A DNA stretch of 64,000 nucleotides from an uncultured Bacilli bacterium (lineage in GTDB: Bacteria > Bacillota_I > Bacilli_A > RF39 > UBA660), in assembly GCA_947626565.1 (NCBI GenBank), contig CANQSQ010000003.1:1518-65517 (forward strand), read 5' to 3'. Below, piece by piece: positions 1,223 to 42,041 of the stretch. The translations under genes and the position numbers were made by a program. Every line of letters starts with the position of its first letter. The first letter of the stretch is position 1. A model generated the notes under the pieces. The model saw nothing but the letters and a program-made list of their open reading frames with translations. It ran no database searches and was not told where the DNA came from.

Positions 1223-1909
1223 ATGAAAGGGAATGTGGTTATGGAAGAGATTAATTTAAAAGAATTATGGATGTATTTTAAATCGAAAATAGGATTAATT
1301 ATATTACTAGTTTTTCTTGTAATTACAATTGGTAATGCTTTTACAATATTTACAAGAGTACCAATGTATCAAAGTACAACGACGATAGTTTTAGTAAGTG
1401 AAAAAAGTGGTTCAGCAGTTAGTCAAACAGATTTAAATTTAAATAGAAATTTGATTGGAACTTATAGTGAAATTGTTAAAAGTAGAAAAGTTTTGAATAA
1501 GGTTATTGATAATTTAGGAATAAATGAATCAGTAGCGACACTTTCAGCAAATGTAGAAGTTAGTTCAGTTACTAATACTGATATTATAAAAATTACAGTA
1601 AATAATCCGAATAGTGAAGATGCTAAAAATATTGCGGATGAAGTTGCTGAAGTATTTATGGCTGAAATAAAAGATTTGTATAGTTTAAATAATATTAGTG
1701 TTCTTGATAAAGCTCAAAGTTCTTCAGCACCTTTTAATGTTAATTATGTTAAAGATAATGTAATTTATTTAGCTATTGGTTTAGTAATTGGTTTAGGTAT
1801 TACATTTGTAATGTTCTATTTTGATACTACAATTAAAACAAATACAGAAATAGAAGATAAGTTAGGATTAACAGTACTTGGTATTGTACCTAGAGAAGAA
1901 AAGGAGTAG
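1223..1909 (+). CDS. cpsC: capsular polysaccharide chain-length regulator (Wzz/CpsC/YwqC family, BY-kinase transmembrane modulator)
   Basis: Two TM segments (IGLIILLVFLVITIGNAF and VIYLAIGLVIGLGITFVMFYF) flank a soluble loop with YQSTTTIVLV...NLIGTYSEIVKSRKVL typical of the Wzz family. It directly precedes and is translationally coupled to the kinase. ATG 1241 (RBS aaggga) is a plausible true start. Confidence 0.8.
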   Translation: MKGNVVMEEINLKELWMYFKSKIGLIILLVFLVITIGNAFTIFTRVPMYQSTTTIVLVSEKSGSAVSQTDLNLNRNLIGTYSEIVKSRKVLNKVIDNLGINESVATLSANVEVSSVTNTDIIKITVNNPNSEDAKNIADEVAEVFMAEIKDLYSLNNISVLDKAQSSSAPFNVNYVKDNVIYLAIGLVIGLGITFVMFYFDTTIKTNTEIEDKLGLTVLGIVPREEKE

Positions 1910-2646
1910 TGGCTATGGGAAATTCATCAGATTTAATTATTAGTAAAAATCCGAAAAGTATTTTTAGTGAAGCAATAAAGAGTATACGTACCAACTTAGC
2001 GTTTTCTTCTATTGATAAAGAAATTAAGGTAATATTAAATACATCTCCTGAAGCTGGTGATGGTAAGAGCTTTATTTCAGCTAATTTAGCAGTTGCTTAT
2101 GCTCAAGCAGATAAACGTGTTTTAATAATTGATTGCGATTTACGTAGAGGTAGACAACATGAAATATTTGAGGTTATGAATGTAAGTAGTGGTGGTTATT
2201 CAAATTTAATTTTGAATTTTGAAGAAGGTATTGATTTTGCTAATTATATTTCAAGAACAAATGTTAAAGGAGTTCATTTGTTACCTACAGGACCAACACC
2301 ACCAAATCCGGTAGAACTTTTGTCAAGTGATAATAATAAGAGACTTATAGCTCGTTTAAAAAGAATTTATGATGTTATTATTCTTGATTGTCCACCAGTT
2401 TTAGGACTTAGTGATGCTTTAGTTTTAACGCAATTTAGTGATGTTAATTTAGTAGTTGTGTCTGCTAAAAAGACTAAGTTTGAGAATTTAGAGAGAACTA
2501 AGAAACAATTTGAACAAGTAAAAGCAAGTATTGCTGGTGTTATTTTAAATAAATCTTGGTCTAATAAAAATGAGCAATACGGTTATTATTATAATGACTA
2601 TTTCAACGATGATAAAAAAGAGAAAAAGAAAAAAGGTAAGAAATAA
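1909..2646 (+). CDS. cpsD: CpsD/YwqD-type bacterial tyrosine (BY) autokinase
   Basis: Walker A PEAGDGKS, Walker A' LIIDCDLRR, Walker B VIILDCPPV, C-terminal tyrosine cluster EQYGYYYNDYF. Start overlaps the cpsC stop. Confidence 0.9.
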   Translation: MAMGNSSDLIISKNPKSIFSEAIKSIRTNLAFSSIDKEIKVILNTSPEAGDGKSFISANLAVAYAQADKRVLIIDCDLRRGRQHEIFEVMNVSSGGYSNLILNFEEGIDFANYISRTNVKGVHLLPTGPTPPNPVELLSSDNNKRLIARLKRIYDVIILDCPPVLGLSDALVLTQFSDVNLVVVSAKKTKFENLERTKKQFEQVKASIAGVILNKSWSNKNEQYGYYYNDYFNDDKKEKKKKGKK

Positions 2647-3377
2647 TGAAAGATTTGCATTCACATTTGTTATATGGAATTGATGATGGTTCTAAGAGTT
2701 TAAAAGAAAGTCTTGAAATATTAAAAAAGGCGCAAGCAGCTGGTGTTACAGAGATGCTTATTACACCACATTATATTGAAGATAGCAAGTATAATTGTAA
2801 TAATAAAGATAAGAAAAGTATTTTTAATAATTTAGTAAAAGAAGCTAAAAAAGAAAAAATAGATATTAAACTTTATTTAGGCAATGAGATTTATTTAACA
2901 GAAAATATTTTAGAATTAATAGAGAAGGGTGAAATATTACCTTTAAATGATAGTAAATATTTATTAATAGAATTTCCAATGAGTAATATGTTTCATAATA
3001 CGAGTGATTTGTTGTTTTCTTTTATTAATAAAGGATATATTCCAATAATTGCTCATCCTGAAAGATATGTTGTTTTTCAGGAACACCCCGATTATGTTGA
3101 AAAATACTTAAATATGGGTGTATTATTTCAAGGAAATTATATGAGTTTATATGGAAAGTATGGCAGAGGAGCTAAAAAGACTTTAAAAAAGTTATTGAAG
3201 AGTGATTACATCTCTTTCTTAGCTAGTGATATACATCATGAAGATGATGAGTTTAAGTTAGATAAGATAAAAAAACATGTTAAAAGATATGTTAAAGATG
3301 AAGAAAAAGTTAATGATCTTTTAGAAAATAATTTTGATATAGTTGTTAAAAATAAAAACTTTGGAATAAAGAGATAA
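2646..3377 (+). CDS. cpsB: CpsB/YwqE-type PHP-family protein-tyrosine phosphatase
   Basis: N-terminal DLHSHLLYGIDDG, IIAHPERY and ASDIHH metal-binding motifs. ATGA overlap with the cpsD stop. Confidence 0.9.
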   Translation: MKDLHSHLLYGIDDGSKSLKESLEILKKAQAAGVTEMLITPHYIEDSKYNCNNKDKKSIFNNLVKEAKKEKIDIKLYLGNEIYLTENILELIEKGEILPLNDSKYLLIEFPMSNMFHNTSDLLFSFINKGYIPIIAHPERYVVFQEHPDYVEKYLNMGVLFQGNYMSLYGKYGRGAKKTLKKLLKSDYISFLASDIHHEDDEFKLDKIKKHVKRYVKDEEKVNDLLENNFDIVVKNKNFGIKR

Positions 3378-3388
3378 TAATTAATTTT

Positions 3389-3428
3389 AGATGGTCATGG
3401 TATTAAAACTTGACTATCTTTTTTTTGA
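3389..3428 (+). terminator. intrinsic terminator after cpsB
   Basis: Hairpin agatggtca / tgactatct (9 bp, one G-U) with a 13-nt loop, followed by a T9 run. Confidence 0.7.
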
Positions 3429-3500
3429 ATTTTTTATTGAAGTTACTGGCTATAATGGTTAATTATGTTTGCAAATTATGTGATATTTAAGGAAAAATAG

Positions 3501-3520
3501 TACTGGCTATATAGCCAGTA
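3501..3520. repeat. perfect 20-bp palindrome TACTGGCTAT|ATAGCCAGTA (same family as the array at 19476-19657)
   Basis: Read directly: tactggctatatagccagta is its own reverse complement. A half-site ttactggctata lies at 3444-3455. Confidence 0.9.
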
Positions 3521-24321: not shown

Positions 24322-24408
24322 TTTCTCTTTTTTTATAACTTATATTTTTCTTTATTTATGGTAGTGATTGTGTTATTATAAATAATTAAATAAATGGAGG
24401 TAGAGTTG

Positions 24409-27400
24409 ATGAAATTACAGGTAAAATATATAAAAGAGCGAATAAAAGCTGTTCAAGAGAAGATAAGAAGATATCTTAAAATTAGATTAGCAAAGAATGT
24501 AGACTATGCACCTCTTTCTCCAGTAGAAATTGTAGAAGAACATATTGATGAATACATGAAAGTTTTAAATATGGTTATAAATAATGATGAGTTAAATAAT
24601 GTAGCAATAACAGGGGGATATGGTACAGGTAAAAGTTCCATAATAAAGACGTTTATAAAACGACTTTGTTTAAAGAAAAAACAATATAGTATTATAACTA
24701 TTGGATCATATTTTAAAGACGAAAGTATTAGAAAAGATGTTTTACAAAGAAATAATTTAAATAATGAAAGTGATGAGGAAAAAGAAAATAAGAATATAGA
24801 AGATAATAAGCAAGAAAAAAGAACATTAGAAGAAAGTAGAGAAAGTGATTACTACTTAAGTGAAGATGAGATAAGATTAGTTAATAAAATAGAAAATGCT
24901 ATTATAAGACAATTACTTTTTAAAAATAACTCAGAAGATATTTTAGAAAGTAATTTCAAAAGATTAAGTAGTAGAAGTCATAGAATTATACAATTATTTA
25001 GTTATTTATATTTACTTTGGTTTGGCTTATTATTAATAATTTTAAAATTTATTTTTACGTATCAAGAAGAAATTACTTCATTTATGATAAATAATTTTTA
25101 TAAGATGGTTGTATTTTTTAATAGTTCTATTTTTGATAAGATTTCTCCGGTAATTATTTTGAGCATAATTATATTATTAATATTTGCTGGTGGTAGTTTA
25201 ATAGTAAGTATTGCTGAAGGGATATTTAAAGCAACTAAGCATTTTAATTTTAGTGTAAAACAGAATAAATTATCATTGGCAGTTAGTTATGATATGGCTT
25301 TTGCTAAGGAACTTAGAGAAATAATAGCTTTTTTTGCCTATAATAAAAAGTGTAGAATAGTCTTCTTTGAAGACATTGATCGTTTTTCAGTTGATGTTAG
25401 TTTGAAAATGGTAGAGGAGTTAAAAGAACTTAATACTATTATTAATAATTCGGATTCGGTAGAACAAAATGTAACTTTTATATATTCTTTTAAAGAGGAT
25501 ATTTTTAAGAATTATAAAGATAAAAGTAAGTTTTATGACTATATTATATCAGTGATGCCTATATCTACTTTTTATAATTCTGCAGAGGTTTTAGAAATGG
25601 CTTTAAAAAAAGCTAATGTAACTTATAAAATTTCTGATAAATTACTAGATATTGTAGCTAATAATATTTATGATGTAAGAACACTTAATTTGATAGTTAA
25701 TGATTTTAAGTTATTTGTGAAAACATTAAAGACCAATAATTATGATAAAGTGTTTGCTATGGTTACATTTAAAAATTACTATATAAAAGAATATGATGGT
25801 ATTTTAGAAAAAGATAATTTTATTGATAAGAGATTTAATGCATATTTTAATAAGAAAAGTGAATTATATAAAATTACTAATCGTAAAATTACTGAGTTAA
25901 AGGGAAAAATAAAAGAGTTTACGAGTGAGGTTTGTAGTAATGTTAGGGAATTGAAACAATTATTATGGTTTAATAATTTTAATAATAGTGTAAATAATAC
26001 TCACATTTTTTGTAATGGAAAATATTATTACTATCAAGATTTTATGAAAGATAACTTTGATATGGAACAGTTAAGAAATAATGAAATTAGGATTTATGGT
26101 GCTTTTAATAATTATTTTGATTATGAATTTGCGGGTGGCAAAGTTAAGTTTTTCGAACGGTTAGATAAAATTACTAATAAAGAGAAGTTACGAGAATTAG
26201 AAGAAGAATTAGCTGCTAGTAAGTATGATTTAGATAGAATTGATGATTTAACAAAGAATGAAGTTATACTAGAATATGGTAAAGAAGAGGTCGTTGTTAT
26301 TGATCTTTTGGATCAATTAATAATTAATAATTTTATTGAAAGAGATTATTTAGATTATATAACGTTACCACCTAGTAATGGTTTAACTGTTAGTGATAAT
26401 AAATTTATTTTTGATGTTAAACATAAAAGTTTTTCAGAAATGACAGGAATAACTAATTGTGCTAAAATCTTAGAAAAATTGGCATTAGAAGAGTTTAATG
26501 GAGTGTATACTTTCAATGTTAACTTAATAAATTTTTTAATTAATAATAAAGACCAGTATACTACTATTTATGGAATGATTTTGGATAATTACAAAAGATT
26601 AGATGATGTTAAGATTAAACAAATTGAAATGCTTTATAATTTTTCATTAGTGGTATATTTAAAATTTATGAATGATATTAATAAAACAGGTACTGATATT
26701 TGGAATGTTTTTATGGATAAGGTTAGTGAAGAAAATAGAAATATTTACAGTAAGATGATGTTTGAAACAATATTATTATTAGATAAAACTACTAATATGG
26801 GAAATAAAAAAACATTTATTGAATATGCTAATGAGTATTTTAATAAGACAGCTAATATAAGGGAAAACTTTGCTATGCTTTTTAGATTAACGGATAACGT
26901 TAAAAGAAATTTAGTAAAATTATTGGGTTATAATTTACGAATTATTGATTTAAATGAATTTTTAGAAAAAGAAAAAGACTTTTTTATTAATAATGGAATG
27001 TATTATTATAATATAAATAATATGAAAGAAATATTGAAGTTTATACCTACTAGTCTAAGTAATAGTGCTTTGAAAGGAATAAGAGAAGGAGAAGTATTTA
27101 TTGAGCATATTCTAAATAATTTTAATTGTTTTGCGAAAGAATATTATTTAGAAAATAATTTTAAAATTGATGATAAAGATATTATAAAGAAACTATTACT
27201 GAGAAATGATATAGCACCAGAAATTAAGAAAGAAATCTTAAAACGGGAGCAGTTTACGGTATATAAGGATGAAGTAGACGAGGGTTTTGATGAGTTGATG
27301 TTTGAATATAATCATTGGACTAGTTCTTGGATTCTTGTTAATTATGTATATGAAAAAATGGGACTAAAAAAAGTAGGTTCTTATGTTTATAAGAATAGAG

Positions 27401-27999
27401 ATACATTATTAAAAGATGCGGGTATTAAAGAAGCAGAAATGGTTGTAAAACCAGAGATAATGGCAGAAATAGTAGTGGAGTTATTAAGAATTGATATTGA
27501 GTTAGATATTGATAAGTTAATGCGAAAATGCTTACAAGAAAAAGACTTTAAATATGAATCATTTAAAATGTTTTATAATAATGAACAAATATTTTTGATT
27601 TTAGAAAAAAATGATTTATTAAAATATGGTCATAAAGCATTTTTAAATAGATTAATAAATATATCCTTAGACTTAGCTTGTGATTACTTAAATAAGTGGT
27701 ATAAGAGTGAAAAAAATATTAAGGATATTTATTTGGATATTAAAAATAATAAGAAATTAATAGCTAAATTATTAAGGGTGATTGAAGATAATGATGCGAA
27801 AATGAAAATTATTTTAGAAGAAGTTAAGAAAGATAATGAACAATTAGGACCATTAATAGAGATAGCTTTTAAAAAAGAAATAAAATATCAAGTTACGTAT
27901 GATTCAGATTTACTAAAGTATATTTTTAAAACTACTATGGCTTCTAAAATATTTAAAAATATTAAGATAATGAAAGGTACTATAGAATTTATCCGATAA
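24409..27999 (+). CDS. KAP-type / YobI-like transmembrane P-loop NTPase (~1196 aa)
   Basis: Walker A ITGGYGTGKSS (about 24610-24640). An acidic low-complexity linker follows. Two TM helices (IIQLFSYLYLLWFGLLLIILKFIF and VIILSIIILLIFAGGSLIVSIAEGIF) come before Walker B RIVFFEDIDRF (about 25353-25385). The last ~850 aa are helical and of unknown function. RBS ggagg before ATG 24409. Confidence 0.7.
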   Translation: MKLQVKYIKERIKAVQEKIRRYLKIRLAKNVDYAPLSPVEIVEEHIDEYMKVLNMVINNDELNNVAITGGYGTGKSSIIKTFIKRLCLKKKQYSIITIGSYFKDESIRKDVLQRNNLNNESDEEKENKNIEDNKQEKRTLEESRESDYYLSEDEIRLVNKIENAIIRQLLFKNNSEDILESNFKRLSSRSHRIIQLFSYLYLLWFGLLLIILKFIFTYQEEITSFMINNFYKMVVFFNSSIFDKISPVIILSIIILLIFAGGSLIVSIAEGIFKATKHFNFSVKQNKLSLAVSYDMAFAKELREIIAFFAYNKKCRIVFFEDIDRFSVDVSLKMVEELKELNTIINNSDSVEQNVTFIYSFKEDIFKNYKDKSKFYDYIISVMPISTFYNSAEVLEMALKKANVTYKISDKLLDIVANNIYDVRTLNLIVNDFKLFVKTLKTNNYDKVFAMVTFKNYYIKEYDGILEKDNFIDKRFNAYFNKKSELYKITNRKITELKGKIKEFTSEVCSNVRELKQLLWFNNFNNSVNNTHIFCNGKYYYYQDFMKDNFDMEQLRNNEIRIYGAFNNYFDYEFAGGKVKFFERLDKITNKEKLRELEEELAASKYDLDRIDDLTKNEVILEYGKEEVVVIDLLDQLIINNFIERDYLDYITLPPSNGLTVSDNKFIFDVKHKSFSEMTGITNCAKILEKLALEEFNGVYTFNVNLINFLINNKDQYTTIYGMILDNYKRLDDVKIKQIEMLYNFSLVVYLKFMNDINKTGTDIWNVFMDKVSEENRNIYSKMMFETILLLDKTTNMGNKKTFIEYANEYFNKTANIRENFAMLFRLTDNVKRNLVKLLGYNLRIIDLNEFLEKEKDFFINNGMYYYNINNMKEILKFIPTSLSNSALKGIREGEVFIEHILNNFNCFAKEYYLENNFKIDDKDIIKKLLLRNDIAPEIKKEILKREQFTVYKDEVDEGFDELMFEYNHWTSSWILVNYVYEKMGLKKVGSYVYKNRDTLLKDAGIKEAEMVVKPEIMAEIVVELLRIDIELDIDKLMRKCLQEKDFKYESFKMFYNNEQIFLILEKNDLLKYGHKAFLNRLINISLDLACDYLNKWYKSEKNIKDIYLDIKNNKKLIAKLLRVIEDNDAKMKIILEEVKKDNEQLGPLIEIAFKKEIKYQVTYDSDLLKYIFKTTMASKIFKNIKIMKGTIEFIR

Positions 28000-28337: not shown

Positions 28338-29492
28338 TTATAATATTTCAACATCTTCTTCAGATTCGGTTTCTGAGTTAGATGAATCTTTAGTAGTATC
28401 TTCTTCTTTAGTTGTTTCTGCTTGAGAAGGTTCTTCTTTAGATTCTTCTGCTTGAGCAATTGGTTCTTCTTTGGCTGGAGCTTCTTCTTGAGCTTGTTTT
28501 TCTTCTGATGAGGTATCTTCTTTAGGTTGTTCCTTAGTTTGTTCCTCTTTGGTAGAATCTTTGGAAGTCTCAGAAGATGAAGTAGAAGTGGTTTTTTGAT
28601 CAAGTGGTTCAAGTTGTTTTTTTAGAATATTTTGGAAAAAGTTTAAATTTAAAAGTTTAGAACCAACTCTAGTATTAAGACGATCTTTTTTCAACTTAAT
28701 ATTTATTAAAGCCTCATTGGCATAATCTACTATTAGAGGGTGTCCACTGATAAAACCAGCCATATCACTATTTAAGAAAATTAATGGTAAAGCCATTTCC
28801 TCAGGAGTAGCTAGACGATGAGCAACACCAGTTTCAGCAATTAAAGCATCATTGCCACCAGCTTCAACTTCAAATTCATCTATCATTCCAGTATCAGTAC
28901 TACCTGGAAGTAAAGCATTGACTCTAATACCAATGTCGCCTAATTCAGCGGCTTTTTCAGCCATATAGAAGTTCATAGCTCTTTTTGATAGAGGATAACT
29001 CATCATACCAATAGTGTCTTCATTAGCTTGATTGTGAAGAGCGGTAATCATTTCTTCCCAAGTTTTTGCCTTAATAAAAGGGGCAAATTCATGGGAGTAT
29101 TTTTCCCAGTGACGACCACCAGATGAAGTTACATAAGCAATAGCACCACCTTGAGACATCCTTGGTTTTAAATACTCTTCAGTAATATATTTATTAGCAA
29201 TAAAATTAACAGTAAAAGTTGTGTAATAATTGGTTATAGCTCCTGATAGGCCAGCAACTCCGAAGAAACAATCAATGTGATCAGGAATTAATTTAAAAGC
29301 ATCATCAATGCTATTTTTATCATTTAAATCAACAGAAATATATTTGACATTTTCTTGATCAATTGGATTTCTATCTAAAGCATAAACTTCAGCATTTAAT
29401 TCATTAAGGATATCAATAGTAGCTTTACCAATACCAGAAGCAGCTCCTGTAACAACACAAATTTTACCAGTATAGTTAAGATAATCTTTCAT
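28338..29492 (-). CDS. SDR-family oxidoreductase with ~110-aa acidic low-complexity C-terminal tail
   Basis: VVTGAASGIGKAT (TGxxxGxG), NALLPG and the YPLSK catalytic YxxxK. The tail is TSTSSSETSKDSTKEEQTKEQPKEDTSSEEKQAQEEAPAKEEPIAQAEESKEEPSQAETTKEED... Confidence 0.85.
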   Translation of the reverse strand: MKDYLNYTGKICVVTGAASGIGKATIDILNELNAEVYALDRNPIDQENVKYISVDLNDKNSIDDAFKLIPDHIDCFFGVAGLSGAITNYYTTFTVNFIANKYITEEYLKPRMSQGGAIAYVTSSGGRHWEKYSHEFAPFIKAKTWEEMITALHNQANEDTIGMMSYPLSKRAMNFYMAEKAAELGDIGIRVNALLPGSTDTGMIDEFEVEAGGNDALIAETGVAHRLATPEEMALPLIFLNSDMAGFISGHPLIVDYANEALINIKLKKDRLNTRVGSKLLNLNFFQNILKKQLEPLDQKTTSTSSSETSKDSTKEEQTKEQPKEDTSSEEKQAQEEAPAKEEPIAQAEESKEEPSQAETTKEEDTTKDSSNSETESEEDVEIL

Positions 29493-30228: not shown

Positions 30229-30275
30229 AGGGTTGATTGAGAAGAGAAATCTTCTTTTTCTTTAAGGAGAAAGTT

Positions 30276-31229
30276 ATGAAAAAATATGGGCAAGACTTAT
30301 TGATTTTCGTTAGTATTATAATTATTTTCTTTAGTAGTAGTGTTTGTTATGCGCTGGTAAAACCTACAAAGAATTTTTATGTAAATGATTATGCAGATAT
30401 TTTGAGTTCGGATGTTGAAAAGCTTATTATAGATTATTCTTATAGTTTAGAGAAAAAGACAAAGGCTCAAATTGTAGTAGTGACTGTTAAAAATTTGGAA
30501 GGAAAAGCAATCGAAGAATATGCTACAGAGTTGTTTCGTAAATTTGGAATTGGTGATAAAAAAGAAAATAATGGGTTATTACTGTTATTAGCTTTAGAAG
30601 AAAGAGAATTTAGAATAGAAGTTGGCTACGGTTTAGAAGGAATATTACCTGATGGTTTAACAGGTAGATATCGAGATGAATATATTTTGCCCTATTTAAA
30701 AGAAAATAAATGGGATGAAGGAATAAAAAATGGTTATTTAGCTTTTTATAAGAAAATTTGTAGTGAATATGGAGTTGATACTAGTATGGTAGAAGCTCCT
30801 AAGGTAATTGAAGAAGGACAAGAAATAGATGAATTAACTAGTACAATAGCTACGCTTTCAGTATCTTTTTCTCTAATTATGGGTGCTGTTTTTGGTACTT
30901 TTATGTTAGAACGCAAAAGAAGTCGTAGAAAAAAGAAAAATAAAAATGATAAATCTTTACTACTTTTTTTGATGGGTATGCTTGTACTTAATATTGGTTT
31001 ATTAGTTTATGATTATTTTATGTTATTTATAGCTTTTGCTGTTTCCTTAGCTGTAGAAATTTTTACTTATGTTTTGGTTAGATTTACTCCGTTTATGAGT
31101 TCAAGTAGAAGATTTAGATCTGGTGGATGGGGAGGCTTTGGAGGCTTTTCGGGTGGCTCTTCATCATTTGGAGGTTTTTCCGGTGGAGGAGGTTCATCAG
31201 GTGGAGGAGGAAGCTCTGGTAAATTTTAA
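30276..31229 (+). CDS. TPM-domain protein (YgcG-like) with Gly-rich C-terminus
   Basis: Signal/TM segment, then FYVNDYADILS...IVVVTVKNLEG TPM domain, TM segments, and a GGWGGFGGFSGGSSSFGGFSGGGGSSGGGGS tail. It shows the typical pairing with lemA. Start 30276 has RBS aaggaga. Confidence 0.85.
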   Translation: MKKYGQDLLIFVSIIIIFFSSSVCYALVKPTKNFYVNDYADILSSDVEKLIIDYSYSLEKKTKAQIVVVTVKNLEGKAIEEYATELFRKFGIGDKKENNGLLLLLALEEREFRIEVGYGLEGILPDGLTGRYRDEYILPYLKENKWDEGIKNGYLAFYKKICSEYGVDTSMVEAPKVIEEGQEIDELTSTIATLSVSFSLIMGAVFGTFMLERKRSRRKKKNKNDKSLLLFLMGMLVLNIGLLVYDYFMLFIAFAVSLAVEIFTYVLVRFTPFMSSSRRFRSGGWGGFGGFSGGSSSFGGFSGGGGSSGGGGSSGKF

Positions 31230-35950: not shown

Positions 35951-36934
35951 ATGGAGAAAAAAAGAAGATTATTACAATTTGTATTTTTACTATTAGCTTT
36001 ATTTCTACCTTTAAATGTTTTAGCCTATTCTGATAAAGTTATTGTAGGTGGTGAAACAATTGGAATCGAAGTGCATTCAAAAGGGGTTTTAATAGTAGAT
36101 TTTTACAAAATAAATGATAAATATATTGCGAAAGATGCTGGGTTTCAAGTAGGAGATATTATTACTAAAGTAAGTGGTGAGGAAATAAATGGTATTGAAG
36201 AACTTACTAATATGCTGGAAGGTAGACAGGGAGAAATTACTTTTACGGTGGAAAGAAATGGTAAGGAAAAGTATATTAATTTTACATTAGTAGAAGATGA
36301 AAATGGTATATTAAAGACAGGTCTTTATATAAAAGATCAAATTAATGGAGTTGGAACTCTTTCTTACATTGATCCAAATAGTAAAATCTTTGGTTCTTTG
36401 GGACATGAAATAATAGAGAAATCGACTATTTCTAAGTTTGAAATAAAAGATGGCGAAATATATGAGGCTAATGTTACTAATATTATTAAAAGTACAGATG
36501 GAAGAGCTGGAGAAAAGAATTCAGTTTACAATAGAGAAAATGTATATGGTAAAATTGAAGAAAATGAATTAACGGGTATTTTTGGTACTTATACTGGAGA
36601 TTTGACTGAAAAAGAAATTATGGAAGTTGGTAAAGAAGAAGATGTACATACGGGTAAGGCTAGTATTAGAACCGTTGTTAGTGATAATAATGTAGAAGAG
36701 TTTGATATTAATATTTTGACACTTAATTTAGACAGTGAAACAAAAAATATTTTGTTTGAAATAACTGATAAAGAATTATTAGAAAAAACAGGAGGAGTTA
36801 TTCAAGGAATGAGTGGTTCACCCATTTTGCAAGATGGTAAAATAATTGGGGCAGTAAACTACGTTATTGTAAATGATACATCGAAAGGTTATGGAGTCTT
36901 TATAACAACGATGTTAGAAGAAGGGGAAAATTAA
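35951..36934 (+). CDS. spoIVB: SpoIVB peptidase (S55, sporulation signalling protease)
   Basis: Signal peptide, PDZ region (GFQVGDIITKVSGEEINGIEEL), then the S55 domain with GTLSYIDP, SLGHEI and catalytic-Ser motif GGVIQGMSGSPILQDGKIIGAV. Confidence 0.85.
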   Translation: MEKKRRLLQFVFLLLALFLPLNVLAYSDKVIVGGETIGIEVHSKGVLIVDFYKINDKYIAKDAGFQVGDIITKVSGEEINGIEELTNMLEGRQGEITFTVERNGKEKYINFTLVEDENGILKTGLYIKDQINGVGTLSYIDPNSKIFGSLGHEIIEKSTISKFEIKDGEIYEANVTNIIKSTDGRAGEKNSVYNRENVYGKIEENELTGIFGTYTGDLTEKEIMEVGKEEDVHTGKASIRTVVSDNNVEEFDINILTLNLDSETKNILFEITDKELLEKTGGVIQGMSGSPILQDGKIIGAVNYVIVNDTSKGYGVFITTMLEEGEN

Positions 36935-36952
36935 AAATAAGATGTTGGTATG

Positions 36953-36983
36953 AAATAAGATGTTTGGTATGCATCTTATTTTT
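36953..36983 (+). terminator. intrinsic terminator after spoIVB
   Basis: aaataagatg / catcttattt 10-bp stem with a 9-nt loop, followed by Ts. The left arm is part of an 18-19-bp tandem duplication (36935-36971). Confidence 0.6.
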
Positions 36984-37002
36984 AAATGAAAAGAATTTAG
37001 GA

Positions 37003-37031
37003 TTGAAAAAGTAGGTAAAAATAGTTATAAT
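37003..37031 (+). promoter_or_regulatory. candidate sigma-A promoter for the pilin-like gene
   Basis: TTGAAA (37003-37008), 17-nt spacer, TATAAT (37026-37031). RBS gtgaggag precedes ATG 37058. Confidence 0.55.
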
Positions 37032-37057
37032 TAATGGTATAGTAGTGAGGAGTAGAA

Positions 37058-39523
37058 ATGAAAAAGAGTAAGAGGAAGAAGAATAAGAATGAAAAAAAAT
37101 TAAAAGGTTTCACATTAGTAGAACTTTTAGCTGCTATTACGATAATGGGCATTATTCTCATTATGGCGATGCCTTCAATAGGCTATATTCAATCTAAAAA
37201 TGAAAAACAACGTTATGAAAAATATGCTAATACTCTTGAAGCAGCTGGAAAGTTATATACCGATTCTAATGCTATTGATATGTTTGGTTATAATGGAGTA
37301 GGTTGCTATGACATTTCATTTGCTGATTTGAAAGATAAGAAATTAATAAGTGATATTGAATATAAAAGCGTTACTTGTGCTGATAGTTCTAAGAAAAGAA
37401 CTTTTGTTAGAGTAAAAAAATACCAAGATACTTTTGATTATCAAGTATCCATATATTGTGCTGATGGGAATAAGAACGAGATATATTCTAGTTTAATAGG
37501 AAGTGACGCTATTTGTACTGAGGAAACTTCTACTGAAGGACCAACTATTACTTTGACACCGACCGGTACAAAACCTAATAATGATCCTAAGTATCAAGTA
37601 AATATCAAAATTGAAGATCAAGATGGTTTATTAGAAAACACTATTGTAGAATATGCTTGGAGTACGGATAAAGATACAAATAATGGTACTTATCAGAAGG
37701 TATATTTTAAAAACAAACGTAACGATAAAAAGACATCTCATAAAGTAACAAGACCAGCTAAAGATGGAACATATTATTTGTTTGTTAAGCCTGTGGCAGT
37801 GGCTGATGTTTTTAATAATCAAAGTATTGATACAGTGAAAACAGGACCTTATGTTTTCGATACTGTACCACCAGATTGTCCTACGATAACAACTAATATT
37901 GCGGACAATAAATGGACGAATCAAAATATTCAATTTACCTTTAAGTTTACAAGTGATACCGTTAAATATAATTGGTATACGAATACTAATGGCGGAAGTT
38001 ATAGTGATTTTGGTTCCAATAATGCTTCTGTAACAACCAAAACATTGTCAGGTGAAGGAACAAGACAAGTAAAGGTTCGTGTTTACGATGAAGCTGGTAA
38101 TTATAGTGAATGTATCAATAATAGTAAAAAATATTTAATAGATTTAACTAGACCTACTTGTACTTCAAGTGGTGGTAGTACCAGTTGGACTAATGGTAGT
38201 AGAACCTTAACAGGAACTTGTCATGATACCGGTGGTAGTGGTTGTGTTGGAAATGCTACTAAAGGTTATACAACTGAAATAAATAGTAGTAAAGAGTCTC
38301 CTGGTACTGTTTATGACCATGCAGGTAATTCTAGAGCTTGCGATGCCAACCAAACGGTTAAAATAGATAAAACGGCACCAACTAATCCAAGTATATCTAA
38401 TCCAACAGGTGGTAACTGGACGAAAGATAATTTTCAATTAAAAGTTTCGGCTAAAGATAATCGTTCTAGTATTAATTCTGGAATACATCATTGGGCTTAT
38501 AGTTATGATAATGCTAACTATACAAATTATCCATCATCAGCAGTTGAGAACTTTACGACTTCAGCATTTAGTACAGAAAGAGGTCAAGTTGTTTATATAA
38601 GAGTATGTGATAATGCCGGTAATTGTTCAACTAACTCAACTTGGATAAGAATAGATAAACATGCTCCATCATGCAGTATTAACTTGTCAGGAACAGCTGG
38701 TAGTAATGGTTGGTACAAATCAAATGTAGGGGTTAATATGACACCATCCGATAATGCCAGTGGCGTATCTAGTTATGGTCTAACAACATCAACATCAGCT
38801 ACTTATAATAGTTCCAAGAGTGCAAGTCAAGGTAATACTACTGGTGTAACTTGGTATGGTTATGTTAAAGATAATGCTGGTAATACTAGTAGTTGTTCTA
38901 AAAACTTTAAAGTTGATGCTAGTCCGCCAACATGTTCAACATCAGGTGGTGGTGGTTGGACAAATAGAAATGTTCAAATTACAGGTACTTGTAGTGATAC
39001 TGGTGGCAGTGGTTGTAGTAAAGCTTCAGTAAGTAAAACATTTACTGATAGTAGTAGAAATTCTAATGAAACACCTGGTGCTGTTTCAGATAATGCTGGT
39101 AATAGCGTTACTTGTCCATATACTTCAGTAATGATAGATAAAATTTATCCTACTTTTGCCGTAACAGGAAGTACTTATGCTAATAATATTGACGGCTATA
39201 GAAATCATTATTTAAAATTGTATATAGATTGGGGCGATACCGGTGGTAGTGGTGTAAAAGATAATTGCGTACCATTTTATTATTGCTACGGGGCTTCAAG
39301 TTGTAGGTCTTTAGGTTATGATATTAATTCTCCAACCATACCAGATAGTGAATACAAAGTTAACGCTTTAGAGTATCATTTGTATTTTGGTTATCGAGCT
39401 AATACTTTTTATTCATATTTTAAAATATGTGATTATGCTGGTAACTGTTCATATTATAATTACCGAGTATCATGGAATTATGGTCCAGCAAGTTACCAAT
39501 TAATTGCTCAAACAAGAAATTAA
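37058..39523 (+). CDS. 821-aa prepilin-type N-terminal cleavage/methylation domain protein with six tandem beta-sandwich-like repeats
   Basis: A basic leader, then KG|FTLVELLAAITIMGIILIMAMP (class III signal, Glu at +5). Six modules each end in D.AGN...C...(I/V)D...P. Two close paralogues are TCTSSGGSTSWTNGSRTLTGTCHDTGGSGC...DHAGNSRAC (about 38150) and TCSTSGGGGWTNRNVQITGTCSDTGGSGC...DNAGNSVTC (about 38920). Confidence 0.75.
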   Translation: MKKSKRKKNKNEKKLKGFTLVELLAAITIMGIILIMAMPSIGYIQSKNEKQRYEKYANTLEAAGKLYTDSNAIDMFGYNGVGCYDISFADLKDKKLISDIEYKSVTCADSSKKRTFVRVKKYQDTFDYQVSIYCADGNKNEIYSSLIGSDAICTEETSTEGPTITLTPTGTKPNNDPKYQVNIKIEDQDGLLENTIVEYAWSTDKDTNNGTYQKVYFKNKRNDKKTSHKVTRPAKDGTYYLFVKPVAVADVFNNQSIDTVKTGPYVFDTVPPDCPTITTNIADNKWTNQNIQFTFKFTSDTVKYNWYTNTNGGSYSDFGSNNASVTTKTLSGEGTRQVKVRVYDEAGNYSECINNSKKYLIDLTRPTCTSSGGSTSWTNGSRTLTGTCHDTGGSGCVGNATKGYTTEINSSKESPGTVYDHAGNSRACDANQTVKIDKTAPTNPSISNPTGGNWTKDNFQLKVSAKDNRSSINSGIHHWAYSYDNANYTNYPSSAVENFTTSAFSTERGQVVYIRVCDNAGNCSTNSTWIRIDKHAPSCSINLSGTAGSNGWYKSNVGVNMTPSDNASGVSSYGLTTSTSATYNSSKSASQGNTTGVTWYGYVKDNAGNTSSCSKNFKVDASPPTCSTSGGGGWTNRNVQITGTCSDTGGSGCSKASVSKTFTDSSRNSNETPGAVSDNAGNSVTCPYTSVMIDKIYPTFAVTGSTYANNIDGYRNHYLKLYIDWGDTGGSGVKDNCVPFYYCYGASSCRSLGYDINSPTIPDSEYKVNALEYHLYFGYRANTFYSYFKICDYAGNCSYYNYRVSWNYGPASYQLIAQTRN

Positions 39524-39537
39524 AGAAGGTTGTATAT

Positions 39538-39852
39538 ATGTATATTGATTTAGTAGTATTTATTGTTTTAATATTAGTTGTAGTAATGTTTTTTAAACGA
39601 TTTGATTCATTTGTATATTTTATGGCTATAATTGACATATTCTTGAGAATTTTAGCATTTATAAAAAATAATATCGGTTTACCAGATGTTAGGGCTTTGA
39701 TTGATAAATATTTACCAGAAAGTGTCATAGCAATTATAAATAAATATACAACAGGATTAGTTAATACATTATTACAATGGGCTTTTGTAGTTATTATGGC
39801 AATATTTTTAAGCTATGTAATAAAGATATTTGTAAAGAAAAAGAAAATTTAA
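39538..39852 (+). CDS. small membrane protein (104 aa), function unknown
   Basis: MYIDLVVFIVLILVVVMFF... has 3 hydrophobic segments. RBS aagaagg lies just after the pilin stop. The ORF track start at 39472 would overlap the pilin gene by 52 nt. Confidence 0.5.
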   Translation: MYIDLVVFIVLILVVVMFFKRFDSFVYFMAIIDIFLRILAFIKNNIGLPDVRALIDKYLPESVIAIINKYTTGLVNTLLQWAFVVIMAIFLSYVIKIFVKKKKI

Positions 39853-39862
39853 TTTGAGAAGT

Positions 39863-39890
39863 AAAAACGACAATTAAGTCGTTTTTTTCT
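39863..39890 (+). terminator. intrinsic terminator
   Basis: aaaaacgac-aattaa-gtcgttttttt. Confidence 0.7.
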
Positions 39891-39916: not shown

Positions 39917-40684
39917 TTGAAGATATATTTAGATGTGGTCTTTTTACTTAACTTTATATTGGATTTCTTTATTTTATATGGAGTATTAAAAGTACTTAAA
40001 AGAAATAAGAAGATTTATCGCCTATTATTAGGTAGTTTAGTAGGAAGTTTGACGACTTTTTTACTATTAGTAAAAATAAGTTCAGGAGAGTTGTTTTTAT
40101 GTAAAATACTTTTAAGTTGTTTAATTATAATAGTTAGTTTTGGTAAAGAAGAGTTCTTTAAAAATCTTTCGTATTTTTATTTGATTAGTATTATTTTAGG
40201 AGGCTGTTTTTATTTATTAGATTTAGGAGTTGTATTTCAAGGAAAAGGTTTAATTATAGCGAAAGATAAACAGTTATTTAATTTTATTTTTTTAATAGGT
40301 GGAAGTTTAGTAATTATCTTTTTATTTATAAGAGAACAATTACAGTATAAAAGTACTTATAGTGATAAATATATAGTGAAGATATATATTAATAAAAAAT
40401 GTTATGATTTGGAGGGGATGATTGATACTGGTAATAGATTAAAAGATCCATATAAGAAAAGAGATGTTATATTAGTTAATTTAAAGTTAGATAGAAGATA
40501 TAAATATATTTATGTACCATATAAAGCTTTAAATACAGAAGGAGTTATTCCTTGCTTAAAACCCGATAAAGTAGTGATTGCAGAAAAGGAATTTAGTAAT
40601 TGCTTAATTGGGTTTAGTAAAGATCATTTTGCTTTAGATGGTGCTAATTGTATATTACCAAATACTTTTAAGGAGGAATTATGA
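39917..40684 (+). CDS. spoIIGA: sigma-E processing peptidase SpoIIGA
   Basis: MKIYLDVVFLLNFILDFFILY start, five TM segments, then a C-terminal aspartic protease region with MIDTGNRLKDP. TTG start. ATGA overlap with sigE. Confidence 0.85.
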   Translation: MKIYLDVVFLLNFILDFFILYGVLKVLKRNKKIYRLLLGSLVGSLTTFLLLVKISSGELFLCKILLSCLIIIVSFGKEEFFKNLSYFYLISIILGGCFYLLDLGVVFQGKGLIIAKDKQLFNFIFLIGGSLVIIFLFIREQLQYKSTYSDKYIVKIYINKKCYDLEGMIDTGNRLKDPYKKRDVILVNLKLDRRYKYIYVPYKALNTEGVIPCLKPDKVVIAEKEFSNCLIGFSKDHFALDGANCILPNTFKEEL

Positions 40685-41373
40685 AAAAAATAATTGCATT
40701 TTTTAAAAAGTTATTTTTAAAAGTTGGTAGTTGTTTTTATGTTGGGGCAACTGATATGTTACCGGAACCATTATCTAGAGAAATGGAGGATTATTATATA
40801 AGTTTAAAGGATGATGGTGACCCATTAGCGAGAGATAAATTAATTGAACATAATTTAAGATTAGTGGTGTTCTTGGCTAAAAAGTATGAAAATACAGGAG
40901 TTGACTTGGAAGATTTAGTTAGTATAGGGACGATTGGTTTAATTAAAGGAATTAATACATTTAGTCGAGGGAAAAATATAAAGTTAGCTACTTATGCTTC
41001 CCGGTGTATAGATAATGAGATATTAATGTATTTACGGAAAAATAAAAAGATTAAAAGTGAAGTTAGTATTGATCAATCTTTATCGTTTGATGGTGAAGGT
41101 AATGAGTTACATTTAGAAGATATTTTAGGAACCGATCCTGATGTTGTGACGCGAGGTATAGAAGAAGAAACAGAAAGAAGTATTATGATTAATGAAGTTT
41201 TACATTTAAAACCAAGAGACCGCGATATTATGATTTTAAGATATGGTTTGATGGGTAATGAAGAGATGACCCAGAAAGAGGTGGCTGAAAAATTAGGGAT
41301 TAGTCAATCATATATTTCTAGAATAGAAAAGAAAGTAATAAAAAGATTAAAAACTCTAGTTAATTATAGTTAA
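40681..41373 (+). CDS. sigE: sporulation sigma factor SigE (pro-sigma-E)
   Basis: The pro-sequence is followed by LPEPLSREMEDYY...IEHNLRLVVFLAKKYENTGVDLEDLVSIGTIGLIKGINTF...KLATYASRCIDNEILMYLRKN...ISQSYISRIEKKVIKRLK, almost collinear with Bacillus SigE. Confidence 0.92.
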   Translation: MKKIIAFFKKLFLKVGSCFYVGATDMLPEPLSREMEDYYISLKDDGDPLARDKLIEHNLRLVVFLAKKYENTGVDLEDLVSIGTIGLIKGINTFSRGKNIKLATYASRCIDNEILMYLRKNKKIKSEVSIDQSLSFDGEGNELHLEDILGTDPDVVTRGIEEETERSIMINEVLHLKPRDRDIMILRYGLMGNEEMTQKEVAEKLGISQSYISRIEKKVIKRLKTLVNYS

Positions 41374-41377
41374 AGTT

Positions 41378-41386
41378 TGCTATAAT
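41378..41386 (+). promoter_or_regulatory. candidate extended -10 promoter (TGCTATAAT) for tdk
   Basis: tgctataat lies 20 bp upstream of the tdk ATG. RBS aggagg. Confidence 0.4.
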
Positions 41387-41405
41387 TAATTAGGAGGTAA
41401 GGTAT

Positions 41406-42041
41406 ATGGCAGAATTATATTTTAGATATGGAGCCATGAATAGTGGTAAATCTTCATTAATTTTACAAGTTGCTCATAATTATGAAGAAAAAAAGATGAA
41501 TATTTTATTAATGAAACCAATGGTTGATTCAAAAGGAGATGACATGATTGTTTCAAGAATTGGTTTACAAAGAAAAGTTGATCATTTAATTGATATAGAT
41601 GAGGATTTATATCAGTTTATAAAAGATTATAATGATATTAAAGAAATAAAAGCTGTTTTAGTAGATGAAGCGCAATTTTTAGAGGAAGAACAGGTTGACC
41701 AATTATTAAAAGTAGTGACAAAGTTAGATATTCCAGTTATTTGTTATGGTTTGAGAGTGGACTTTTTACAAAATGGTTTTAAAGGCTCTAATCGATTATT
41801 ATTACTTAGTCATAGATTAGAAGAAATGAAAACGGTGTGCAGATGTGGTAGAAAAGCTATGGATAATGCTAGAGTAGTTAATGGTGAATATGTATTTGAA
41901 GGAGATCAATTAGCTATTGATGGTCAATTAGATATATCTTATGAGTCTCTTTGTCATCATTGCTATTTAGAGGAAAAAGAAAAGTATTTACAAAGGATTA
42001 AGGAAAGAGGAAAAGTTAAGGTCAAAGAAAAAAGCCTTTAA
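41406..42041 (+). CDS. tdk: thymidine kinase
   Basis: P-loop GAMNSGKS, VLVDEAQF, and zinc ribbon CRCGRKA...CHHC. Confidence 0.95.
   Translation: MAELYFRYGAMNSGKSSLILQVAHNYEEKKMNILLMKPMVDSKGDDMIVSRIGLQRKVDHLIDIDEDLYQFIKDYNDIKEIKAVLVDEAQFLEEEQVDQLLKVVTKLDIPVICYGLRVDFLQNGFKGSNRLLLLSHRLEEMKTVCRCGRKAMDNARVVNGEYVFEGDQLAIDGQLDISYESLCHHCYLEEKEKYLQRIKERGKVKVKEKSL

Follow-up and report, generated by a model that had tools for sequence, protein, structure and literature searches.

In a 64,000-nucleotide stretch of DNA from an uncultured Bacilli bacterium of the RF39 lineage (contig CANQSQ010000003.1), referred to below as the window, one gene encodes an 821-amino-acid (aa) protein that is best read, with a probability of about 0.6, as a modular minor type IV pilin or adhesin displayed by a type IV filament machine encoded elsewhere, probably of the Com type. 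As modular pilins go it is fairly ordinary, the interest lying in its family: it belongs to a known class and not to a new system, and its relatives form a large undescribed family in uncultured gut bacteria. An earlier note, made from the letters of the window, had proposed a giant minor pilin or adhesin tip, a proposal that fits the conserved class III signal, the pilin-like alpha1 helix with its predicted beta-sheet head, and the chain of immunoglobulin-like (Ig-like) modules behind it.

The N-terminus of the protein reads MKKSKRKKNKNEKKLKG/FTLVELLAAITIMGIIL, the slash marking the predicted cleavage site, with the prepilin motif KLKG/FTLVELLAAITIMGIIL. Membership among type IV pilins and class III signals was judged by PF07963, TIGR02532 and IPR012902. 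The protein scores 27.0 bits against Pfam N_methyl (PF07963; cut-off 21.2) and 21.8 bits against TIGR02532 (cut-off 16.3), bearing out the textbook prepilin signal that had been recognised in this open reading frame (ORF). A short basic leader running to Gly(-1) is followed by Phe(+1) and Glu(+5), in the form MKKSKRKKNKNEKKLKG/FTLVE. Across 50 homologues, picked on overall similarity, F18, T19 and E22 (mature F1, T2 and E5) are invariant and G17 is at least 90% conserved. Judged from these profile matches and alignments, the ORF carries a genuine prepilin-type (class III) signal that is conserved family-wide. A conserved Glu5 is expected in pilins that dock into a filament, and the conservation of Gly(-1) and Glu(+5) over deep divergence argues, on established pilin biology, for peptidase processing and filament docking. 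It is very unlikely that the protein is simply signal-anchored or secreted through Sec, with a chance likeness to prepilins at its N-terminus, or that the gene is decaying. Prepilin-like motifs can arise by chance, PilFind having given 4 false positives among 14,699 proteins (PMC3244431), but the motif is conserved here across hundreds of homologues and the head that follows it is conserved too, while the ORF is intact and has the third-position base composition of its neighbours.

The full-length AlphaFold2 (AF2) model, built with 50 aligned homologues, has a mean predicted local distance difference test score (pLDDT) of 76, and a separate model of aa 1-170 (pLDDT 80) reproduces the same head. 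Both independent models predict a helix of 57 residues at aa 20-76. A profile of the head, built on 14 members of the family, finds 21 solved type IV pilins and pseudopilins at E values between 6e-10 and 0.06, Streptococcus sanguinis PilE1 among them over 52 residues; every match runs through alpha1, and nearly all alignments begin at Phe1, the predicted first mature residue. Support for the class III signal and for alpha1 is therefore good. Beyond the helix, AF2 predicts strands at aa 82-87, 116-122, 125-136 and 141-145, and cysteines C83, C107, C134 and C153 are conserved; the family alignment of the head (A4) has 55% mean identity, with all four cysteines kept. The predicted secondary-structure order, four strands after alpha1 with four conserved cysteines, fits pilin heads, making the globular part pilin-like in its modelled element order, without a solved relative. 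A phmmer search of the PDB returned alpha1 matches only.

Seven beta modules are predicted by AF2 behind the head, the stretches delimited up to aa 699 (Table 1) being modelled mostly at pLDDT 75-95. The Ig-like folds that had been expected for the modules agree with these predicted beta-sandwiches: with the whole model as query, Foldseek returns multi-Ig/FN3 arrays at E values down to 4.5e-14, examples being the GhpA grappling hook, LILRB3 and complement macroglobulin domains. At the sequence level, Big_3_2 sums to 25.3 bits over the body (cut-off 23.3), Big_13 and OmpL47 remain under their cut-offs, and tblastn finds 26-31% identity to SLH- or FN3-containing surface proteins of Paenibacillus and Thermobacillus. 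Six copies of the D.AGN motif are present, at aa 344, 420, 518, 605, 678 and 792; the six modules that the earlier note had counted, each ending in this motif, become seven in the AF2 model, the first carrying a D..NN variant. The protein has 23 cysteines in all, and its last part, aa 700-821, diverges even from the 89%-identical homologue P0002. With a head at aa 18-160 followed by seven predicted beta-sandwich modules, the protein has the composition of a modular pilin, in which a pilin module acts as carrier of at least one extra effector module that is not specific to type IV pilus biology (Raynaud et al. 2021, PMC8179133).

Two of the modules, at aa 367-441 and 625-699, are of a four-Cys type, and the four cysteines of the first copy are invariant in alignment A1 and nearly so in A2. 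The two copies had been described as near-duplicates; they are the same module type but old, because they are 49% identical in protein and 60% in DNA, and the DNA of the gene holds short repeats only, of 60-86% identity. Module-to-module similarity was taken from pairwise alignment, and a self-BLAST of the pilin for internal repeats returned the identity match only. A recent module duplication or a phase-variation cassette was rejected, the DNA repeats being short and diverged and the only homopolymer being an A8 tract.

A search with the 821-aa pilin yields 814 homologues at E <= 1e-3, with lengths of about 500-1400 aa, and about 100 of the best 120 carry the N_methyl flag. Nearly all come from metagenome assemblies, almost all being metagenome-assembled genomes (MAGs) of uncultured low-GC gut Bacilli or "Mycoplasmatota". 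The few named homologues are annotated only as 'prepilin-type N-terminal cleavage/methylation domain-containing protein', one of them coming from a MAG with a name that begins 'Candidatus On'; members in the reference genomes L005-L008 belong to MAGs from the gut of deer, rabbit and human, labelled as uncultured 'Bacilli' or 'Tenericutes'. The host lineage is itself low in guanine plus cytosine (G+C; ~26%), retains sporulation genes and has gut-associated relatives. Its closest named AlaS relatives, at 77% identity, are labelled 'MAG: Bacilli bacterium' and 'MAG: Mycoplasmatota bacterium', and the analysis placed it in or near the radiation of RF39, RFN20, ML615J-28 and Erysipelotrichales (PMC10868615). 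What the homologues have in common is the head and a variable number of ~75-aa four-Cys modules of the form C-x19-C-x7-C-x31-C, closing with D.AGN...C....IDKTAP. An exhaustive search found this module in 489 cluster representatives among 1.84 billion, with up to 19 copies per protein. It is almost private to prepilin proteins, since among the best 150 of the 489 representatives 115 start with a prepilin motif and only about 3 have a Sec-type signal or plain transmembrane anchor, about 32 being N-terminally truncated fragments. No description of the head, the near-private four-Cys module, the family size or the scattered, tandem and rapidly exchanging organisation in uncultured gut Bacilli was found in the literature consulted. 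An Imm1 (PF14430) toxin/immunity label on some homologues proved to be an artefact of summed partial 36-aa matches to the repeated D.AGN region: no single stretch reaches the Imm1 cut-off in the labelled homologues, and the window pilin has no Imm1 match.

In the proposed mechanism, the N-terminal pilin module (class III signal peptide, alpha1 helix and a small, presumably disulfide-stabilised beta-sheet head) would be the carrier, and a stalk of about 650 aa with seven Ig-like beta-sandwich modules, two of them of the four-Cys type, would be the effector. The precursor would enter the membrane, where a ComC/PilD-type prepilin peptidase encoded elsewhere would cut after Gly17 and methylate Phe18, and a type IV filament machine would then take up the mature pilin via alpha1. 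The Com pilus is the likeliest machine because vertical inheritance of comG is reported for Erysipelotrichales, a neighbouring order (PMC12786226). Classical Mollicutes without type IV filament genes are also without pilins (PMC3244431), and the many conserved pilins of the present clade therefore suggest that a machine is present. The pilin would be a subunit of low abundance, its most likely place being the filament tip or close to it, with the Ig-like stalk projecting past cell wall and capsule as an adhesin.

The closest parallels in architecture are the S. sanguinis pilins PilB, with a vWA module, and PilC, with a lectin module (PMC8179133; PMC9934059), which likewise are Gram-positive proteins with a class III signal and a small carrier pilin module bearing a bulky effector predicted or shown to be adhesive; alpha1 of S. 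sanguinis PilE1 aligns with that of the window pilin. Unlike PilB and PilC, the window pilin bears seven Ig-like modules instead of one vWA or lectin domain, lies outside a pil locus in a family of scattered tandem paralogue arrays, and has a head without detectable similarity to solved heads. An 860-residue protein of Candidatus Falkowbacteria with 12 IPR013211 repeats (InterPro census, PMC8179133) is comparable as a very large prepilin with many tandem small repeats after the pilin module; it belongs to another phylum, whereas the present protein combines a four-Cys module of ~75 aa with Big_3_2/Big_13/OmpL47-like domains and its repeat is almost exclusive to prepilins. CofB and TcpB of type IVb pili, ComZ of Thermus and GspK of type II secretion are likewise minor pilins of unusual size, with additional beta-rich or other domains and a presumed position at the filament tip (PMC8179133 and general pilin biology). 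Their genes, unlike that of the window pilin, lie in the respective pilus or secretion operons, their additional domains number one or two, and GspK-type tip pilins typically lack Glu5, which is invariant in the present family. ComGD, ComGE, ComGF and ComGG of Bacillota are approached through a partial ComGE match only; unlike them, the window pilin is 6-8 times larger, lies outside a comG operon with no comGA or comGB nearby, and matches over alpha1 alone. The stalk of Ig- or FN3-like modules is shared with sortase- or SLH-anchored Ig-repeat adhesins of Gram-positives. The anchor differs, being the N-terminal prepilin module: the 821-aa protein has no SLH domain and no C-terminal LPXTG, hydrophobic stretch or basic tail, ending in ...SYQLIAQTRN.

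Several observations weigh against a filament subunit. ORF reading and a motif scan revealed no prepilin peptidase, pilus ATPase or platform gene (pilB/pilC/pilD-like) in the 64-kb window, in agreement with the earlier note. Nor were assembly genes seen within 10 kb of any homologue locus examined, the scan covering L001-L008, L085 and L089 by Pfam annotation or ORF reading and wider low-GC loci by Walker-A/peptidase motif scan only. The isolated head model gave no significant structural match to solved pilins in a Foldseek search of the PDB (best E = 1.3). Matches to ComGC/D/E/F and Gsp pseudopilins are restricted to the N-terminal helix and fall far under the equivalog cut-offs: ComGE, the best partial NCBIfam match (E = 2.7e-7), reaches 30.6 vs 49 bits, followed by ComGC (19.9 vs 75), ComGF (17.8 vs 80) and ComGD (11.8 vs 70), with GspH at 22.3 vs 80 bits, GspG at 17.6 vs 88.85 and GspI at 14.7 vs 44.35. 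In the pilin body, no ligand or binding site is identifiable.

In an alternative reading, the class III signal and alpha1 would do no more than fix and orient the Ig-like stalk, either within the membrane or within a stub of one or few subunits, giving sortase-independent display in reduced-genome gut Bacilli. This use, which can be likened to that of archaeal sugar-binding proteins with class III signal peptides (the bindosome), is unlikely here, though it is the main rival of the filament reading. Family genes never lie beside assembly genes in the examined loci and form scattered tandem paralogues resembling variable surface proteins; the srtA/B sortases are reported missing from RFN20 and ML615J-28 (PMC10868615); seven Ig-like modules in a row could by themselves cross a thin wall; and non-filament use of class III signals has a precedent in Sulfolobus (PMC3047682). 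The window contains no LPXTG-type ORF, a weak point given its length of only 64 kb. On the other hand, the conservation of Glu5 and Gly(-1) over deep divergence would be expected for processing and docking and needless for a simple anchor, the well-conserved globular head suggests subunit-subunit packing, and the reported lack of sortases covers RFN20 and ML615J-28 and is not established for the source genome. A broader and still more doubtful proposal is that the prepilin module is a general surface-protein carrier in sortase-poor, reduced-genome gut Bacilli (RF39, RFN20, ML615J-28 and Erysipelotrichales-like), in which a large, fast-evolving, genome-scattered repertoire of giant modular prepilins would replace LPXTG adhesins. 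The bodies may then be Ig-like four-Cys modules, TSP1-like repeats and others, often with a cognate single-pass membrane ORF of ~250 aa, and display might need hardly any filament or none, or might use a Com-type machine turned from DNA uptake to adhesion.

At all homologue loci examined, giant prepilin genes of relatives sit amid housekeeping genes, for example near rpmF, leuS and topA, often as tandem paralogues: three in L001 and L004, after yceD-rpmF, and two each in L002, L003, L005 and L006. The short pilins in relatives' MAGs are likewise scattered. Short pilins bearing the same head were considered as a tie to a particular pilus system and rejected in that role, with 13 weak matches only and those pilins orphan too. 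The orphan status that had been presented as peculiar to the pilin gene is thus the rule for the clade, since giant and short pilins alike are scattered across the examined loci. The earlier note had also considered that homologues might always lie in com or pil operons, and no such operon was found within 10 kb at the examined loci. In Gram-positive genomes, too, many pilin candidates were found outside biosynthetic operons (Imam et al., PMC3244431).

Further features of these loci were observed. In L017 (4036-14797), from an uncultured gut Bacilli MAG, five tandem prepilin-type paralogues of ~685 aa, with another body and few cysteines, are followed by a 1524-aa ORF, and no assembly genes lie inside the locus. 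In L014, L026 and L085, pairs of short pilin genes adjoin a gene for endonuclease IV, and L026 and L085 have efp close by as well. The pairs in L014, L026 and L085/L086 recall the comG-efp linkage reported for Erysipelotrichales, with no comGA or comGB upstream; in L026, the genes upstream of the pair look like gyrB and gyrA from their N-terminal sequence. Single-pass membrane ORFs of 241-254 aa lie directly 3' of giant prepilin genes in relatives (L089 3521-4270; L001 12609-13334 and 15887-16651; L007 13068-13793). They are mutually homologous (BLASTP E 1e-6 to 1e-21), no Pfam family was found for them, and they may be cognate accessories or chaperones of giant prepilins. The window itself lacks the ~250-aa partner ORF that trails many relatives' pilins.

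Reading of every ORF of at least 100 aa across the window gives the order capsule/exopolysaccharide (EPS) locus (~1-24 kb), a 1201-aa P-loop protein, mutS, nusB, xseA, xseB, spoIVB, the pilin gene, a 104-aa ORF, spoIIGA, sigE, tdk and later alaS and holA. Pfam confirmed spoIVB, spoIIGA and sigE; the other names were taken from translations and are backed by Pfam annotation of the syntenic loci L089 and L091. These loci were reached through AlaS orthologues because alaS lies 6 kb downstream of the pilin gene. L091 (AlaS 77% identical) has the order mutS-nusB-xseA-xseB-spoIVB-[106-aa ORF]-spoIIGA-sigE-tdk without a pilin, and L089 (AlaS 87% identical) has a 701-aa N_methyl protein and a 249-aa membrane ORF at exactly the same site, followed by its 104-aa ORF. 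The pilin gene is therefore a lineage-specific, fast-turnover insertion between spoIVB and the 104-aa ORF.

The insertion history bears on a reading drawn from the location between spoIVB and spoIIGA-sigE, that of a sporulation or spore-surface protein, an idea the earlier note had raised. Position is all that favours it, and position follows from an insertion with its own sigma-A-like promoter. L091 has no pilin in the same syntenic block, the closer relative L089 has a different pilin at the site, other family members adjoin rpmF, leuS, topA and similar genes, and the pilin gene is preceded by a terminator-like hairpin and has that promoter-like site; a sporulation role is accordingly extremely improbable.

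The L089 pilin (1401-3506) is 41% identical to the window pilin, over the N-terminal half only, and has a different body. That body consists of Cys-rich 'C..ACGG' repeats resembling thrombospondin type-1 repeats on the same head, and the third pilin of L001 gives faint TSP_1-family matches. Together, these two cases suggest that effector bodies are swapped on one carrier head.

The 104-aa membrane ORF downstream and its terminator had been recorded as the only followers of the pilin gene. Both are present, yet partnership with the pilin is not borne out: they belong to the sporulation locus and not to the pilin system, because they also occur in L091, which has no pilin. In three related genomes an ORF of 104-106 aa directly precedes spoIIGA-sigE and is accompanied by this terminator, and no Pfam family was found for the protein. 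L089 has a separate terminator for the pilin cassette and retains a promoter-like sequence for the 104-aa ORF. The window has only 14 nt between the pilin stop and the ATG of the 104-aa ORF, so that the two are probably co-transcribed here. A role as pilin accessory was rejected by synteny with L091 and L089, and the sporulation locus of this lineage may include the 104-aa protein as a component so far overlooked.

The higher G+C content that had been seen in the gene is real (0.33) and carries no meaning beyond amino-acid composition. The excess lies wholly at codon position 2 (0.46 vs 0.24-0.29 in neighbours), whereas G+C at position 3 (GC3) is 0.16, inside the neighbour range of 0.13-0.20; S, T, N and G account for 40% of its amino acids. 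Raised G+C is therefore an effect of composition and not a sign of foreign DNA, and a case for horizontal transfer from G+C was rejected on this basis. A phage or plasmid origin was also rejected: phages gave no match, and chromid-size plasmids gave only weak ones, to Ig domains.

The near-consensus promoter proposed for the gene is present, with 11 of 12 consensus positions, and such sites occur around the gene at chance frequency in this AT-rich stretch (20 found vs 18.8 expected in shuffled sequence). Hexamers resembling it stand at the equivalent relative position in L089, as judged by eye. The A8 homopolymer at 37092-37099 lies within the basic-leader codons and is the sole tract of at least 8 bases in the gene; it might permit slipped-strand on/off switching. 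Table 1 collects the features of the locus.

Table 1. Coordinates of the pilin gene, its parts and the adjoining elements in the window.
Feature	Position	Strand	Basis
Hairpin and T-run closing the upstream spoIVB unit, setting the pilin gene apart	36931..36985	+	Perfect 14-nt inverted repeat 36931-36944 / 36972-36985, then TTTTT
Sigma-A-type promoter-like site, TTGAAA-17-TATAAT	37003..37031	+	11/12 consensus matches
Ribosome-binding site GAGGAG, ATG 5 nt downstream	37047..37052	+	Sequence reading
Modular prepilin-type protein, 821 aa	37058..39523 (including stop)	+	ORF call, profile matches, homologues, AF2 model
Basic leader peptide, aa 1-17, last residue Gly-1 (predicted prepilin-peptidase cleavage site)	37058..37108	+	N_methyl and TIGR02532 matches
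Alpha1 helix of mature pilin, aa 18-76	37109..37285	+	AF2 helix, conserved residues, profile match to solved pilins
Globular head, aa 77-160: four predicted beta strands, one short helix, four conserved Cys	37286..37537	+	AF2, pLDDT 80-94
Predicted beta-sandwich module 1, aa 163-270, D..NN motif variant	37544..37867	+	AF2 pLDDT ~87; D250 and N254 conserved
Predicted beta-sandwich module 2, aa 271-366	37868..38155	+	AF2; weak Big_13 and Big_3_2 matches
Four-Cys 75-aa module, copy 1, aa 367-441 (C368, C388, C396, C428)	38156..38380	+	AF2 pLDDT >90
Predicted beta-sandwich module 4, aa 442-537	38381..38668	+	AF2; weak OmpL47-type match
Predicted beta-sandwich module 5, aa 538-624	38669..38929	+	AF2
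Four-Cys 75-aa module, copy 2, aa 625-699; 49% identity to copy 1	38930..39154	+	Pairwise alignment, AF2
C-terminal Cys/Tyr-rich region, aa 700-821, degenerate DYAGN motif last; poorly modelled	39155..39520	+	pLDDT 34-68
104-aa membrane ORF, three hydrophobic segments	39538..39852	+	Orthologues L089 4341-4655 (76% identity), L091 4395-4715 (65%)
Intrinsic terminator	39863..39886	+	Conserved beside the 104-aa ORF in all three genomes

Elsewhere in the window, sigE is directly followed by a thymidine kinase gene and not by sigG (40681-42041), an arrangement also present in L089 and L091; the classical spoIIGA-sigE-sigG operon is therefore split in this lineage. The 1201-aa protein just past the capsule/EPS locus (24394-27999) has an N-terminal P-loop GGYGTGKSS and internal hydrophobic segments. 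From translation reading, two further proteins have long tails of low complexity: an apparent short-chain dehydrogenase (28338-29492, minus strand) with an acidic Glu/Lys/Thr/Ser-rich C-terminus of ~90 aa, and a membrane protein (30237-31229, plus strand) with a terminal Gly/Ser-rich tail.

For annotation, the lesson is that orphan pilin genes are normal in this clade and that their neighbours are not to be assumed partners. Animal and human guts commonly harbour uncultured Bacilli with small genomes. Should this family supply their main surface adhesins, it would offer candidate colonisation factors and possibly antigens, pilins of a different uncultured gut clade having been shown to stimulate dendritic cells (PMC11680825). 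The carrier-plus-effector logic of modular pilins would then extend to a whole paralogous repertoire, with the addition of an Ig-like four-Cys module that is almost confined to prepilin proteins.

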